This document shows, one piece after another, positions 13,286 to 17,735 of a stretch of DNA of 32,000 nt. This DNA comes from Leptolyngbya sp. Cla-17 (lineage in GTDB: Bacteria; Cyanobacteriota; Cyanobacteriia; Leptolyngbyales; Leptolyngbyaceae). The position numbers and the translations under genes are program-made. The notes under the pieces are model-generated. The model made no database searches, was not told where the DNA came from, and worked only from the letters and a program-made list of their open reading frames with translations. Location: contig NZ_JAEVYN010000002.1 in assembly GCF_016807185.1 (NCBI RefSeq), positions 1,630,980 through 1,662,979 on the forward strand, read 5' to 3'. Position 1 is the first letter of the stretch. Every line of letters begins with the position of its first letter.

Positions 13286-14995
13286 ATGAGCTATCGGATG
13301 AATCGCCGCGCCTATGCGGAAACCTTTGGACCAACCGTGGGCGATCGCGTCCGGCTCGCCGACACGGAGTTAATCATCGAAGTGGAGCAAGACTACACCA
13401 CTTACGGCGATGAGGTGAAGTTTGGTGGCGGTAAGGTGATTCGGGAAGGCATGGGACAGTCGCCAATCACCAATGCAGATGGGGCGGTAGATGCGGTGAT
13501 TACCAACGCGCTCATCCTGGATTGGTGGGGCGTTGTCAAAGCCGATGTGGGGATTAAAGATGGCAAAATTCACGCGATCGGCAAAGCGGGAAATCCTCAT
13601 ATTCAGGACAATGTGACGATTATTATTGGTCCCGGCACCGAGGCGATCGCCGGAGAGGGAATGATTCTGACAGCGGGCGGCATTGATACTCACATTCACT
13701 TCATCTGTCCTCAACAAATTGAAGTGGCGATCGCTGCTGGCATTACCACCATGATTGGCGGCGGCACCGGACCGGCAGCAGGCACCAACGCCACCACCTG
13801 CACACCGGGACCCTGGTATATGCATCGGATGTTGCAGGCTGCCGATGCCTTTCCGATGAATCTAGGCTTTTTGGGTAAAGGCAACAGCGGCAAACCAGAA
13901 GGACTTGTGGAACAGGTAGAAGCGGGGGCGATGGGATTGAAGCTGCATGAGGATTGGGGCACGACTCCAGCGGCGATCGACACTTGCCTTAGCGTTGCCG
14001 ATGAGTATGATGTGCAAGTTGCTATCCACACCGATACGCTGAATGAATCTGGCTTTGTGGAAGATACGATCGCCGCTTTCAAAAATCGTGTGATCCACAC
14101 CTATCACACCGAAGGCGCAGGCGGCGGACACGCGCCCGACATCATCAAAGTTTGCGGTCAGGCGAATGTATTGCCTTCTTCCACCAATCCCACCCGTCCT
14201 TACACAATTAACACGTTGGACGAACACCTGGATATGTTGATGGTCTGCCATCACCTCGACCCGGCGATCGCGGAAGACGTTGCCTTTGCCGAATCCCGGA
14301 TTCGTCGCGAAACTATTGCCGCCGAAGACATTTTGCATGATCTCGGTGCGTTCAGCATGATCTCCTCTGACTCTCAGGCAATGGGGCGCATCGGCGAAGT
14401 AATTATCCGCACCTGGCAAACTGGGCACAAAATGAAAGTGCAGCGGGGCAACCTCTCAGAAGATTCCAGCCGCAACGACAACTTCCGCGCCAAACGCTAT
14501 ATCGCCAAGTACACAATTAATCCCGCGATCGCTCACGGCATCGCTGACCATGTGGGCTCCGTAGAAGTGGGCAAACTCGCCGATCTTTGCCTCTGGCGAC
14601 CTGCCATGTTTGGCGTTAAACCCGAAATGGTGATCAAAGGCGGCATGATTGCCTGGGCGCAAATGGGCGATGCCAACGCCAGCATTCCCACGCCCCAACC
14701 CGTGCATATGCGCCCCATGTTTGCTAGCTATGGCGGCGCGATCGCCCACACGTCCCTCACCTTTGTGTCCAAAGCGGCGCTCAAAAAAGGGATTCCTGAT
14801 GAACTGGGCTTGCAGAAAAAAGCGATCGCGGTTTCCAACATTCGCCAACTGACCAAGCGCGACATGAAGCTCAACGATGCGCTACCCCACATGGAAGTAA
14901 ATCCCGAAACCTATGAAGTCCGTGCCGATGGGCAACTGCTCACCTGCGAACCCGCCACCATCCTCCCCATGGCACAGCGCTACTTCCTGTTTTAA
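13286..14995 (+). CDS. ureC: urease subunit alpha
   Basis: The [30 protein letters not shown]-terminus, [13 protein letters not shown] nickel ligands, GLKLHEDWG (carbamylated-Lys region), MVCHHLD and SSDSQAMGR. 569 aa. Confidence 0.97.
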
Positions 14996-15000
14996 TTCAT

Positions 15001-15315
15001 GGTTAACGTTCTTGTTTAAAGCGGGAACGTTTTTGTTTTCAGTGAGAACGTTCCTGTTTCAGGTAGGACGATTCCTGTTTCAAATAGGAATAATGCGGGT
15101 TGAAACAGCAATCGTCTTGTTTCAAGTGAAAACACTCCTGTTTTAAGTGAGCTGGTTTCTGGTTGAAACGACACAGTTCTTGTTTTAAGCTAAAACGTTC
15201 CGGTTACAAATGAGACCGTTGCGGTTTCAAACAGGAGTTTTCCTATCCTGAACTACGACAGTTTGGTTTTAAGCAAGACAGTTCTAGTTTTGGGCAAGAC
15301 TGTTGCCAAATCAAA
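15001..15315 (+). repeat. tandem array of 15 degenerate 21-nt units, consensus about YGAGAACGTTCCTGTTTCAAG
   Basis: Units read directly from the sequence at an exact 21-nt period: ggttaacgttcttgtttaaag / cgggaacgtttttgttttcag / tgagaacgttcctgtttcagg / taggacgattcctgtttcaaa / taggaataatgcgggttgaaa / cagcaatcgtcttgtttcaag / tgaaaacactcctgttttaag / tgagctggtttctggttgaaa / cgacacagttcttgttttaag / ctaaaacgttccggttacaaa / tgagaccgttgcggtttcaaa / caggagttttcctatcctgaa / ctacgacagtttggttttaag / caagacagttctagttttggg / caagactgttgccaaatcaaa. Confidence 0.9.
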
Positions 15316-15440
15316 TCTCAAATTTCCAGTTAGATCGAGAATTCCAGATCGAAATCTCCAAAAGTAACCTGAAATCGGGTGGAAAATTTATACTTCGGAG
15401 GCTACAACAGAGATAGTTTTCTTTCATTACCCATAAATTT

Positions 15441-15911
15441 ATGCTGGAAGTCATTACCCTGGCGTTGGCGACCCCGATCGCAAAAATTATTTTAGATAAA
15501 CTCTACGAAGGCATGGGGAGTAAACTGGGCGAAAAGGTATCAGAAGCGGCATCTGCACCGATTCAAAAGTTGGGACAGGCGGTATGGAATCGCTGCTTTA
15601 AGGGCAAACCAGGAACCGAGAAGGTTTTAGAAGCAGCAGCTAAAGGTTCGGAGCCAGAACTAAAGCAAATCCAGGACTACCTGCAAAAGGAAATGGAGAA
15701 TCCTGAATTTGTGGGTATGGTGCAGCCGATCGCTCAGGAAATCCATCAGGTGCTCGTGCAGATGGATGATGTGAATGCGGAGAATGTCCAGCAGAATGCG
15801 CGGGACGGGTTTCAAAATATCGGGACTGAAGGACCGATTCTTCAAGGGATTAAGGATTCACCGATTACTTTCACAACGCACAACTACCACGGTGTAAAGC
15901 CGACAGATTGA
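15441..15911 (+). CDS. 156-aa all-helical protein; by frame continuity, the N-terminal domain of the downstream NB-ARC/TPR protein
   Basis: ATG ORF with a hydrophobic/amphipathic N-terminus (MLEVITLALATPIAKIILDKLYEG) and predicted helical segments. It ends at TGA 15909-15911, in the same frame as ORF 16026..17735. No recognisable SD. Confidence 0.6.
   Translation: MLEVITLALATPIAKIILDKLYEGMGSKLGEKVSEAASAPIQKLGQAVWNRCFKGKPGTEKVLEAAAKGSEPELKQIQDYLQKEMENPEFVGMVQPIAQEIHQVLVQMDDVNAENVQQNARDGFQNIGTEGPILQGIKDSPITFTTHNYHGVKPTD
15909..15911 (+). other. single in-frame TGA separating the N-domain ORF from the NB-ARC/TPR ORF
   Basis: The context is AAG CCG ACA GAT TGA CTG GAG CCG. Hand translation of 15912-16025 is stop-free (LEPPEREQAKLNSTHNLDQRGTDIFVGREQELIDLHKV) and runs directly into LQGENAVAISAISGMGGIGKT. 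Confidence 0.9.
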
Positions 15912-16025
15912 CTGGAGCCGCCTGAACGGGAACAGGCAAAGTTAAACTCCACACACAATCTTGACCAACGCGGCACGGATATTTTCGTTGGACGAGAGCA
16001 GGAATTAATCGATCTGCACAAGGTA

Positions 16026-17735
16026 TTGCAGGGAGAGAATGCTGTGGCAATTTCGGCAATCTCTGGCATGGGCGGGATTGGCAAGACCGAATTGGCAGTG
16101 CAGTATGCATGGGAACATTTGGCGCAGAAAACCTATCCGGGTGGCGTGGTTTGGTTAAAAGCACGGGAAGACGTGGCAACGCAAATTGTGCTGTTTGCCC
16201 GATCGCTGCCGATGCCGCAACCACACGATGATTTTGAACTGGCAGAGAAGGTGAAGTTTTACTGGCGCAACTGGCAAGACGCGAAAACGCTGGTGATTTT
16301 GGATGATGTCCAGAATTATGGTGCCATCAAACCGCTGCTGCCAGTAGACCCGCGCTTCAAAATTTTGCTGACCACTCGCTGGCGGTTGCAATCGCCCGTA
16401 CAGGATTTTGAAATCAAGGTGCTGTCGGAGGAGAAGGCGATCGAGTTGCTAAGGGCGATCGTTTTTGATGGACGAATCGACCAGCAAATTGATGAAGCCA
16501 AGCGAATTTGTCAGTGGTTGGGCTACTTGCCACTGGGCTTGGAGTTGGTCGGGCGATATCTGGCGCGAAAACCGGATACATCGTTGGCAACCCTGTGGCA
16601 ACGCTTGCAGGACAAAAAGCTGAACGCGAAAGCGCTGAAAGATGCCGTCCCGGAAATGCCCGCAATTCTGGGAGTCACCGCCGCTTTTGAATTGAGTTGG
16701 GACGTGTTGGATGAGCTAGCGCAACAGTTGACAGCATTGCTGAGTCTGTTTGCCCTGGCAGAGATTCCCTGGACGTTGGTAGAAGCGTGTTTACCGGAGG
16801 AAGACCCAGAAGCGTTAGAAGATCGGCGGGATGAGTCGCTGGTCTCCCTACATCTGCTGGTACGCACCGGACAAGGCACGTACCAACTGCACCAACTGCT
16901 GCGCGAGTTTTTTGCGGCAAAACGGGCGGAAATGGCAGTAGATGAAGAGATGAAGCAAGCATTCTGCCGGGTGATGTCAGCTGTGGCAGATCAGATGCCA
17001 ATAAACCCAACCCGATCGCAGATTGAGCAATTTGCCCCGGTCATTCCCCACCTGAAGGAAGTCGCCGACACTCTCCATCCCTGGCTCACCGATGCTGATG
17101 TAATTAAACCCTCTACCCGAATTGCTCAGTTCTATGAAGGACAGGCAGCCTACGCCGAGGCACTACCCTGGTATCAACACAGTTTAGAAATCGCAGAAAC
17201 CAGATTAGGAGCAGAGCATCCCCATGTCGCCACCAGCCTCAACAATCTGGCAGGACTCTACCAATCCCAAGGACGCTACAGCGAGGCAGAACCGCTGTAC
17301 CTCAGAGCGCTAGCAATCTATGAACAGCAGTTGGGCGCAGACCATCCCGATGTCGCCACCAGCCTCAACAATCTGGCAGGACTCTACGAATCCCAAGGAC
17401 GCACCAGCGAGGCAGAACCGCTGTTCCTCAGAGCACTGGCAATCAGGGAACAGCAGTTGGGCGCAGACCATCCCGATGTCGCCACCAGCCTCAACAATCT
17501 GACATTACTCTACAAATCCCAAGGACGCACCAGCGAGGCAGAACCGCTGTACCTCAGAGCGCTGGCAATCCTGGTCGAGAAACTGGGAGACAACCATCCC
17601 AATACCCAAACGGGGCGGCAAAACTTCCGGTTCTTGTTGCAGCAAGTGATTCAGGCGGGGCAAACGGCGCAGCTATCGGAGCATCCGCTGACGCAGAAAC
17701 TCATTCAGCAATTACAAATGCAGAATCAGGAATGA
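16026..17735 (+). CDS. STAND NTPase of the NB-ARC (AP-ATPase) clade with C-terminal TPR repeats (NLR-like); the true 5' end is uncertain
   Basis: P-loop GMGGIGKTE (16065-16091), Walker B LVILDD (16290-16307), LLTTR (16365-16379), and the GLPL-type motif GYLPLGLE (16521-16544). The C-terminus has kinesin-light-chain-type 42-aa TPRs (ATSLNNLAGLYQSQGRYSEAEPLYLRALAIYEQQLGADHPDV, three copies). The track start TTG 16026 lies downstream of the conserved FVGREQEL pre-P-loop element (15984-16007). Confidence 0.85.
   Translation: MQGENAVAISAISGMGGIGKTELAVQYAWEHLAQKTYPGGVVWLKAREDVATQIVLFARSLPMPQPHDDFELAEKVKFYWRNWQDAKTLVILDDVQNYGAIKPLLPVDPRFKILLTTRWRLQSPVQDFEIKVLSEEKAIELLRAIVFDGRIDQQIDEAKRICQWLGYLPLGLELVGRYLARKPDTSLATLWQRLQDKKLNAKALKDAVPEMPAILGVTAAFELSWDVLDELAQQLTALLSLFALAEIPWTLVEACLPEEDPEALEDRRDESLVSLHLLVRTGQGTYQLHQLLREFFAAKRAEMAVDEEMKQAFCRVMSAVADQMPINPTRSQIEQFAPVIPHLKEVADTLHPWLTDADVIKPSTRIAQFYEGQAAYAEALPWYQHSLEIAETRLGAEHPHVATSLNNLAGLYQSQGRYSEAEPLYLRALAIYEQQLGADHPDVATSLNNLAGLYESQGRTSEAEPLFLRALAIREQQLGADHPDVATSLNNLTLLYKSQGRTSEAEPLYLRALAILVEKLGDNHPNTQTGRQNFRFLLQQVIQAGQTAQLSEHPLTQKLIQQLQMQNQE
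17211..17588 (+). repeat. three tandem 126-bp repeats, nearly identical at the DNA level, encoding 42-aa TPR units
   Basis: Copies start at 17211, 17337 and 17463, exactly 126 nt apart. For example, gcagaccatcccgatgtcgccaccagcctcaacaatctg is identical in copies 2 and 3. Confidence 0.9.

Follow-up and report, generated by a model that had tools for sequence, protein, structure and literature searches.

A conserved in-frame stop codon and RNA element between a putative Bell-type protein and an NLR-like frame in filamentous cyanobacteria: a candidate for programmed readthrough

A small helical protein ahead of an NB-ARC/TPR frame

Within the window, the 32,000-nucleotide stretch of Leptolyngbya sp. 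Cla-17 DNA that was analyzed, an ATG at position 15441 opens a reading frame that closes with a TGA at positions 15909 to 15911, and its translation is identical to the 156 residues quoted in the original prediction. The coding part (15441 to 15908) divides into a core of residues 1 to 111 and a tail of residues 112 to 156. Directly behind the TGA, which is followed by a C, a second frame runs in the same phase from 15912 to 17735 and has Pfam matches to NB-ARC (E value of 4.9e-18) and TPR_12 (E value of 6.8e-56), the domain content of an NLR-like STAND protein. All features described here are on the plus strand. The neighborhood consists of ordinary chromosomal genes: panC-cmk, rmlD, ureC, a class-3 lipase, argG, and a debranching enzyme.

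The AlphaFold2 model of the 156-residue module, built from a 41-sequence alignment, contains six helices (residues 7 to 21, 25 to 31, 35 to 53, 59 to 67, 71 to 85, and 88 to 111), with a mean pLDDT of 75.5 and a pTM of 0.61 for the module and a pLDDT above 90 across most of residues 41 to 100. Helix 1 is the sole hydrophobic helix throughout the family (mean Kyte-Doolittle hydropathy of +1.17, with 11% charged residues), while the helices that follow are amphipathic (hydropathy near −0.3, about 30% charged). In the window's own protein, helix 1 reaches a hydropathy of +1.58, and on family consensus and hydropathy the segment from 15441 to 15506, which carries a diverged MEPIT-type motif, is the predicted membrane-inserting element. 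The tail (15774 to 15908) is unstructured in the model, with a pLDDT of about 44. Its composition is dominated by N (13.9%), G (12.4%), and Q (10.2%), together 36%; it is predicted to be beta-prone, resembles a BASS tail, and ends at the stop codon.

Database searches gave the module no enzymatic identity: no enzyme or catalytic family matched it in Pfam, NCBIfam, or PADLOC, where all hits were at chance level. When PDB sequences were compared with the module profile, the best E value was 0.026, and the top matches were designed or coiled-coil proteins. Foldseek comparison of the model with PDB returned nothing below an E value of 0.97 (a match to Rx-CC at 1.8 is not meaningful), and a wide VIA-align search with the module fold peaked at a Z score of 5.1, to an unrelated protein. 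Neither sequence nor fold matched HeLo, MLKL, or plant CC domains (Rx_N and RPW8) in Pfam, Foldseek, or VIA-align. The ESM Atlas places the module in unnamed cyanobacterial clusters. HetE-N, which accounts for 12% of one of these clusters, was a weak lead that Pfam scans of 41 family members did not confirm.

Several parts of the original prediction hold up against these results. The module is helical, opens with a hydrophobic helix, and lacks a catalytic signature. Structure prediction followed by a fold search, the course it had suggested, yielded the six-helix model but no meaningful fold match. Its description of the module as the N-terminal domain of a STAND protein does not fit. The NB-ARC/TPR frame is in phase, but the TGA closes the module, which could be the N terminus of the NLR only if the stop codon is read through.

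The first ATG, GTG, or TTG in the NB-ARC frame is a TTG at 16026, located 14 codons past the start of the conserved FVGR motif and only 13 codons before the P-loop (16065 to 16088). To judge from its codons, the NB-ARC/TPR frame has no usable start codon ahead of its conserved core.

Family and Bell-type context of the module

An HMMER search of 1.84 billion representative sequences recovered 68 relatives of the module, nearly all of them stand-alone proteins of 130 to 160 residues. Among 61 genomes surrounding the window's own, homologs occur in 25, once more as short open reading frames, and a word-indexed search for fused forms of 420 to 1339 residues found none. The family consensus begins with M-x-E-P, and many members carry MEP(I/V/L)(T/S) followed by an Ala/Ile-rich helix; the window's copy has diverged to M-L-E-V-I-T.

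A 2024 preprint names a “MEPIS” motif that is shared by Bell, Hell, and Bab domains and also occurs in several antiphage NLRs (bioRxiv 10.1101/2024.11.07.622273). An earlier preprint describes the Bell domain as an all-alpha, N-terminal domain of about 100 residues, with a hydrophobic first helix amid amphipathic helices, and the canonical Bell/BASS pair as a small protein whose C-terminal amyloid motif is shared with the N terminus of the adjacent NLR (bioRxiv 10.1101/2020.01.06.895854). Such canonical pairs were found among more distant homologs of the module, where the tail motif recurs in the N terminus of the next gene at 9 or more of 20 loci, a count that is only a lower bound because a 30-nt self-overlap masked 11 loci. 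The motif repeats in these pairs reached Smith-Waterman scores of 48 to 100, compared to maxima of 34 to 45 for shuffled sequences. All four of the next genes scanned with Pfam encode NACHT or NB-ARC domains, and those that were read have an ATG of their own. A second Bell-like subfamily, represented by other upstream open reading frames, is homologous to the window's family (hhalign probability of 98.6%, E value of 1.2e-15).

Rare fusions offer another view of the module. In one relative (P0070), it is joined to an EAD7 domain (E value of 3.9e-15) that forms the C-terminal part, residues 103 to 166; this was the only EAD7 match among the 41 family members scanned. Kaur et al. 2020 (PMC7159879) count EAD7 among the adaptors that recruit effectors, which places the module of P0070 where an effector would be. 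Two further relatives have the module followed by TIR_2 (P0047) or by a transmembrane segment and GUN4 (P0043).

The MEPIT-type motif, the uniquely hydrophobic helix 1, the homologs in canonical pairs, and the EAD7 and TIR fusions together favor reading the module as a HeLo-like executioner domain of the Bell type whose tail resembles BASS, an indirect assignment by family and context that was reached through the motif and the canonical-pair homologs. According to the 2024 preprint, fold topology varies widely among Bell, Hell, and Bab domains, and sequence or structural homology between subfamilies is very low (bioRxiv 10.1101/2024.11.07.622273); because of this variation, the empty fold searches count neither for nor against the assignment. 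The original guess at a membrane-targeting, HeLo-like helical effector is consistent with this family evidence, from the MEPIT-type helix 1 to the canonical pairs and the EAD7 fusion. Its claim of a novel domain fails because the Bell class was already described: publications of 2020 and 2024 cover both this class of domain and its association with NLRs. The segment that it took for a polar Q/N/G-rich linker is more likely an amyloid-type signaling tail that ends at the stop codon, judging by composition and by similarity to the tails of canonical pairs. The Bell/HeLo-like executioner class lies outside the coverage of current Pfam models, and the 156-residue protein, previously unannotated, can now be placed within it. 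In itself the module appears to be an ordinary member of a known, poorly annotated family; of greater interest is its link to the NLR frame through a conserved, putatively leaky stop codon and a candidate pseudoknot.

A module of this kind could also serve as a homotypic-interaction adaptor, of the effector-associated or Death-like type, that recruits other effectors to the NLR and is not itself the killer. Its small size, all-helical build, and lack of a catalytic motif would suit that role, as would the relatives fused to TIR_2 or to a transmembrane segment with GUN4, which recall the adaptors shared by sensors and effectors (Kaur et al. 2020, PMC7159879). However, no Pfam EAD model matched the module at E values up to 1, and P0070 is already equipped with an adaptor in EAD7, next to which the module takes the place of the effector. 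The NLR of a canonical pair, moreover, has no partner other than the small protein, and the uniquely hydrophobic helix 1 is a hallmark of Bell and HeLo domains and not an adaptor trait. These observations weaken the adaptor alternative, which we consider unlikely.

Conservation of the stop codon and RNA element at the junction

The order of a small open reading frame, a stop codon, and an in-phase NLR frame is not peculiar to the window. In the 12 closest loci, the in-phase frame opens with an L-E-S-S-G-G-A-P-T-K-L-type peptide, and the NLR bodies behind it differ. A covariance model of the RNA element at the junction, run on a sample of 151 genomes of the class, matched 27 sites in 22 of them, including a second site in the window's own genome that lies between a member of another Bell subfamily and another NB-ARC/TPR body. 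A search with the exact hairpin pattern, which did not specify a stop codon, returned 21 sites among 185,579 species genomes, all of them in cyanobacteria (Leptolyngbyaceae, Nodosilinea, Okeania, Dapis, Elainellales, and others). At every one of the 20 sites that could be analyzed, a TGA was present in phase 9 nt upstream of the pattern.

When these loci were pooled, a stop codon occupied the junction in all 43 unique loci (TGA in 40, TAG in 3, and TAA in none), with C as the +4 base in 41 and T as the −1 base in 38; many of the loci are related by descent, and the counts therefore overstate independence. The upstream open reading frame is 121 to 292 residues long in 41 of the 43 and looks damaged in the other two (32 and 106 residues). 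The frame after the stop extends for at least 316 codons in 35 loci. Of the shorter ones, four are truncated where the retrieved DNA ends, and another four, which may be decayed, close at 157 to 261 codons. All 10 downstream frames tested encode NB-ARC plus TPR (8 frames) or NACHT (2 frames). No copy of the tail motif was detected on the NLR side in any of the 27 covariance-model loci, the window included, where scores stayed at the level of shuffled sequences. In P0043, one of the rare fused relatives, the same junction peptide contains a sense codon where the other loci have the stop. An ortholog in Leptolyngbyaceae UHCC 1019 has a TAG within its Bell open reading frame, from which it follows that some copies decay.

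The RNA element lies downstream of the stop codon. In the window it comprises an 8-nt spacer (CTGGAGCC, 15912 to 15919) delimited from alignments, a hairpin with a 5-bp stem (GCCTG/CAGGC) and an 8-nt G-rich loop (15920 to 15937), and an A-rich linker beginning with AAAG that leads into a C-rich segment (15938 to 15951), which in most loci could form the second stem of a pseudoknot. Given the 8-nt spacer, the first stem starts at +12. The same order is conserved across loci: stop, 8-nt spacer, 5-bp stem, G-rich loop of 8 to 11 nt, A-rich stretch led by AAAG, and C-rich run. In an alignment of 10 sequences, the stem was paired in 100% of cells, with compensatory double changes at two of the pairs, and in 30 sequences the variants of the two arms still paired at constant spacing.

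Sequence variation also points to pairing between the loop and the downstream segment. The two covary from locus to locus, as GGGG with CCCC, AGGAG with CTCCT, CGGC with GCCG, and GGAGGAG with CTCCTCC. In a position-restricted, weighted test, whose outcome is inflated by kinship among the loci, matched partners had a mean helix score of 11.3, compared to 10.2 when partners were swapped between loci, and only 5 of 3000 swaps reached the observed value; shuffled sequences scored about 8.7 to 9.1, and none of 3000 reached it. An unrestricted comparison of longest helices that allowed G-U pairs did not discriminate the pseudoknot partners. The proposed helices are short (5 bp plus 3 to 7 bp), and the window's own second stem has just 3 bp (GGA/TCC), with a nested alternative in which the spacer pairs with the same segment. 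This pairing of the spacer with the C-rich segment is also the window's minimum-free-energy fold. Folding energies of single sequences were unremarkable, with a z score of −0.96 for the window and about 0 for other loci, and an Rfam scan of positions 15300 to 16200 at E values up to 10 yielded only chance miRNA and snoRNA matches. The A-rich stretch may sit in the minor groove of the stem, as in the frameshifting pseudoknots of luteoviruses.

One explanation for this arrangement is that the Bell and NLR frames are two separate genes, with the NLR translated by coupling or from a noncanonical start and the RNA serving in processing or stability or marking a recombination hotspot. It would agree with the usual layout, in which a Bell gene lies next to its NLR gene and frequently overlaps it (Dyrka et al. 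2020, bioRxiv 10.1101/2020.01.06.895854). N-terminal and NLR parts have indeed been reshuffled among close relatives (the window compared with genomes G029, G004, and G007), a process that the conserved 45-nt joint could promote, and a GTG or TTG precedes the FxGR motif in 15 of 41 loci. However, the interval from the stop to FxGR, ahead of the NTPase core, is free of ATG, GTG, and TTG in 26 of the 41 and contains an ATG in only 1. The codon after the stop is CTG, CTA, CTC, CCG, or AAG, no start codon is conserved behind it, and no Shine-Dalgarno sequence combined with a start was seen. The two frames are in phase in 43 of 43 loci, whereas canonical pairs use all three phases, have TAA among their stops, and, where read, place an ATG close after the stop. 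We therefore judge independent translation of a separate NLR gene to be improbable.

Far less credible is that the UGA is recoded as selenocysteine, or that the A of the stop codon is edited (A-to-I), in place of decoding by a near-cognate tRNA. A UGA with a conserved hairpin close behind it does resemble a bacterial SECIS, but the loop begins 13 nt past the UGA, closer than is known from bacterial SECIS models, and the codon lies at a linker position with no obvious use for selenocysteine. ARAGORN detected neither a tRNA-Sec nor a suppressor tRNA in the 94.7% complete genome; the lack of a tRNA-Sec and the three loci that combine a TAG with the same RNA element both argue against selenocysteine. 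Frameshifting was rejected because both frames share a phase and there is no slippery site. Least probable of all is a pseudogene or sequencing error, in which a formerly continuous Bell-NLR gene would have been interrupted by the TGA as a nonsense mutation, leaving the 156 residues as a remnant: this would fit a lone in-frame TGA in one genome and the extra TAG in the Bell part of the UHCC 1019 ortholog, but the stop position is kept in 43 unique loci of many genera and is never TAA, most of the flanking frames are long and open, and very few forms are fused.

Candidate readthrough and comparison with known systems

Readthrough of the MoMLV gag-pol junction takes place at a UAG followed by an H-type pseudoknot starting at +12, and alphaviral readthrough at a UGA-C followed by CUA or CGG (PMC13517186). 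Bacteria decode UGA at a level of a few percent, as in the Q-beta A1 protein and in Bacillus subtilis cat-86 (PMC13517186), tryptophan is the residue inserted at UGA, and conserved in-frame stop codons in genes have been documented (PMC7918605). The match between the layout of the cyanobacterial junction and known readthrough signals, combined with the absence of a tRNA-Sec, leads us to propose that ribosomes mostly terminate at this stop codon and sometimes read through it. On the strength of the sequence comparisons, programmed readthrough is the probable nature of the junction.

According to this proposal, most ribosomes would halt at the UGA-C and release the small Bell-tail protein, in which amphipathic helices are predicted to surround the hydrophobic first helix and the N/G/Q-rich, BASS-like tail comes behind. 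A minority, aided by the hairpin or pseudoknot 8 nt past the stop, would insert an amino acid and continue. This residue would most likely be Trp, delivered by tRNA-Trp with a CCA anticodon, and the product would be a Bell-tail-NB-ARC-TPR protein. Once its TPR sensor is triggered, the NLR part may oligomerize and gather the N-terminal Bell-tail copies. The gathered copies could attack the membrane directly through their own first helices; alternatively, the fusion could act as a seed that converts and recruits the free Bell-tail protein, the more abundant product, through the tail that both share. Either route would be expected to end in cell death or abortive infection.

With somewhat more caution than we attach to readthrough at the junction, we lean toward the broader view that filamentous cyanobacteria use a dedicated recoding signal, in which a compact pseudoknot follows a leaky UGA-C or UAG-C at a distance of 8 nt, in chromosomal immune genes to make an abundant free executioner and a rare Bell-tail-NLR sensor. 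If correct, this would be a structure-assisted, virus-like, pseudoknot-stimulated readthrough signal in cellular bacterial genes, and it would set the stoichiometry of a cell-death switch from one transcript, with much effector and little sensor. Effector and sensor would also share their signaling tail by construction, with no duplicated motif. Because such NLRs have no ordinary start and the small proteins are called as stand-alone genes, these NLRs may be mis-started or called as pseudogenes in genome annotations.

We know of no case of structure-assisted readthrough in cellular bacterial genes beyond phage Q-beta and general UGA leakiness. Literature searches on readthrough in genes of cyanobacteria or in NLR genes brought up nothing relevant, and no paper was found on a Bell-NLR junction with an in-frame stop, with readthrough, or with an RNA structure. 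In their available text, the two preprints on these domains do not mention an in-frame stop or readthrough, as judged by “stop codon” in the first (bioRxiv 10.1101/2020.01.06.895854) and “readthrough” in the second (bioRxiv 10.1101/2024.11.07.622273). The report on conserved in-frame stops in bacterial genes makes no mention of hairpins, secondary structure, cyanobacteria, or NB-ARC (PMC7918605).

The closest parallels to the junction itself are viral. Like MoMLV gag-pol and alphaviral nsP3-nsP4, it has a UAG or UGA-C, here predicted to be leaky, that is often followed by CUA or CUG, and it shares with MoMLV gag-pol the 8-nt spacer, and a structure that starts at +12, for which a compact pseudoknot of the H type is a candidate. 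The predicted output, much of a short product and little of a fusion, would also match the gammaretroviral and alphaviral signals, as does the presence of a sense codon in some relatives. Unlike the viral signals, the junction lies on a bacterial chromosome in putative cellular immune genes, has no sequence homology to them, and has much shorter helices. With phage Q-beta A1 and general UGA leakiness, neither of which to our knowledge involves a dedicated downstream RNA structure, it would share a C-terminally extended product.

The proposed actions of the protein have counterparts in eukaryotic immunity. As a Bell-type protein, it would be a bacterial analog of the helical bundles that attack membranes in fungal HeLo/Hell, MLKL, and plant CC proteins. 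As in plant CC-NLR resistosomes (ZAR1 and the MADA motif), an N-terminal helical bundle would have its first helix freed upon NLR oligomerization to attack the membrane. As in fungal HeLo/HET-S with NWD2, the NLR could template amyloid in a separate effector. The module has no sequence or fold match to plant CC-NLRs or HeLo/HET-S, and the resemblance is functional and architectural only.

The nearest known systems are the Bell/BASS pairs of filamentous bacteria (bioRxiv 10.1101/2020.01.06.895854) and the antiphage system Bab/Agp (bioRxiv 10.1101/2024.11.07.622273). With these, the window's protein has in common a helical domain of about 100 residues, a hydrophobic MEPIT-type helix 1, an N/G/Q/V/I-rich tail of about 25 to 45 residues, an NB-ARC/TPR or NACHT partner, and a restriction to filamentous cyanobacteria, and homologs of the window's protein themselves sit in canonical pairs. 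Unlike in canonical pairs, the NLR of window-type loci continues the Bell frame past a conserved stop codon and RNA structure, and the tail motif could reach this NLR only through readthrough. If readthrough does occur, translation would offer a second way to achieve what canonical pairs achieve by duplicating the motif.

Exchange of Bell and NLR parts between close relatives

Comparison of the window with loci from three closely related genomes (L002 and L036 in G029, L003 in G004, and L004 in G007) showed that Bell parts and NLR bodies have been shuffled relative to one another. For example, G029 encodes a Bell part 84% identical to that of the window but joined to a different NB-ARC subfamily, and G004 retains the NLR of the window. 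Such reshuffling among close relatives suggests that Bell and NLR parts were exchanged by recombination within or close to the conserved junction. The nearest ortholog (81% identity) lies in Leptolyngbyaceae cyanobacterium UHCC 1019, where L003 and L075 denote a single locus. This Bell ORF is broken by a TAG at the position of the window protein's Trp50, while the junction and NLR frame of the locus are unbroken.

A second junction and fused relatives

The Cla-17 genome carries a second stop-plus-hairpin junction outside the window (locus L034, G000:C8:1379801-1379855, minus strand). Its upstream ORF, which begins with GTG and carries the MEPIT-type hydrophobic first-helix motif, belongs to another Bell-like subfamily, and its downstream frame encodes another NB-ARC and TPR protein, distinct from that of the window. 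Two proteins extend beyond their Bell-like domain. In P0043 this domain leads into the junction peptide, here with a sense codon in place of the stop present in other members, and a GUN4 domain follows after a transmembrane segment. In P0014 the Bell-like domain is followed by approximately 450 residues without a Pfam match.

tRNA gene content of the Cla-17 genome

ARAGORN identified 192 tRNA genes in the whole genome. Most species are present in 5 to 8 copies and tRNA-Trp(CCA) in six, and for three odd tRNAs the called anticodon is 2 or 4 nt long. Together, the gene count, copy numbers, and odd anticodon calls point to several tRNA gene arrays. No tRNA-Sec or suppressor anticodon was found by this whole-genome search. 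Hypothetically, the surplus of tRNA-Trp might increase readthrough at UGA.

Tandem repeats within and upstream of the genes

Three near-identical tandem units of 126 bp (92% matches; window positions 17211 to 17570) encode TPR modules of the sensor. Upstream, TRF detected an array with a 21-nt period at 14980 to 15315, about 125 nt before the Bell-type ORF. Period-21 arrays also occurred at six other stop-plus-pseudoknot loci (L036, L037, L044, L054, L059, and L066), and periods of 63 and 42 were found at L040 and L050. All of these arrays, including that of the window, lie within 900 nt upstream of a Bell-type ORF, and those with a 21-nt period may represent a regulatory array of Bell-type/NLR junction genes.
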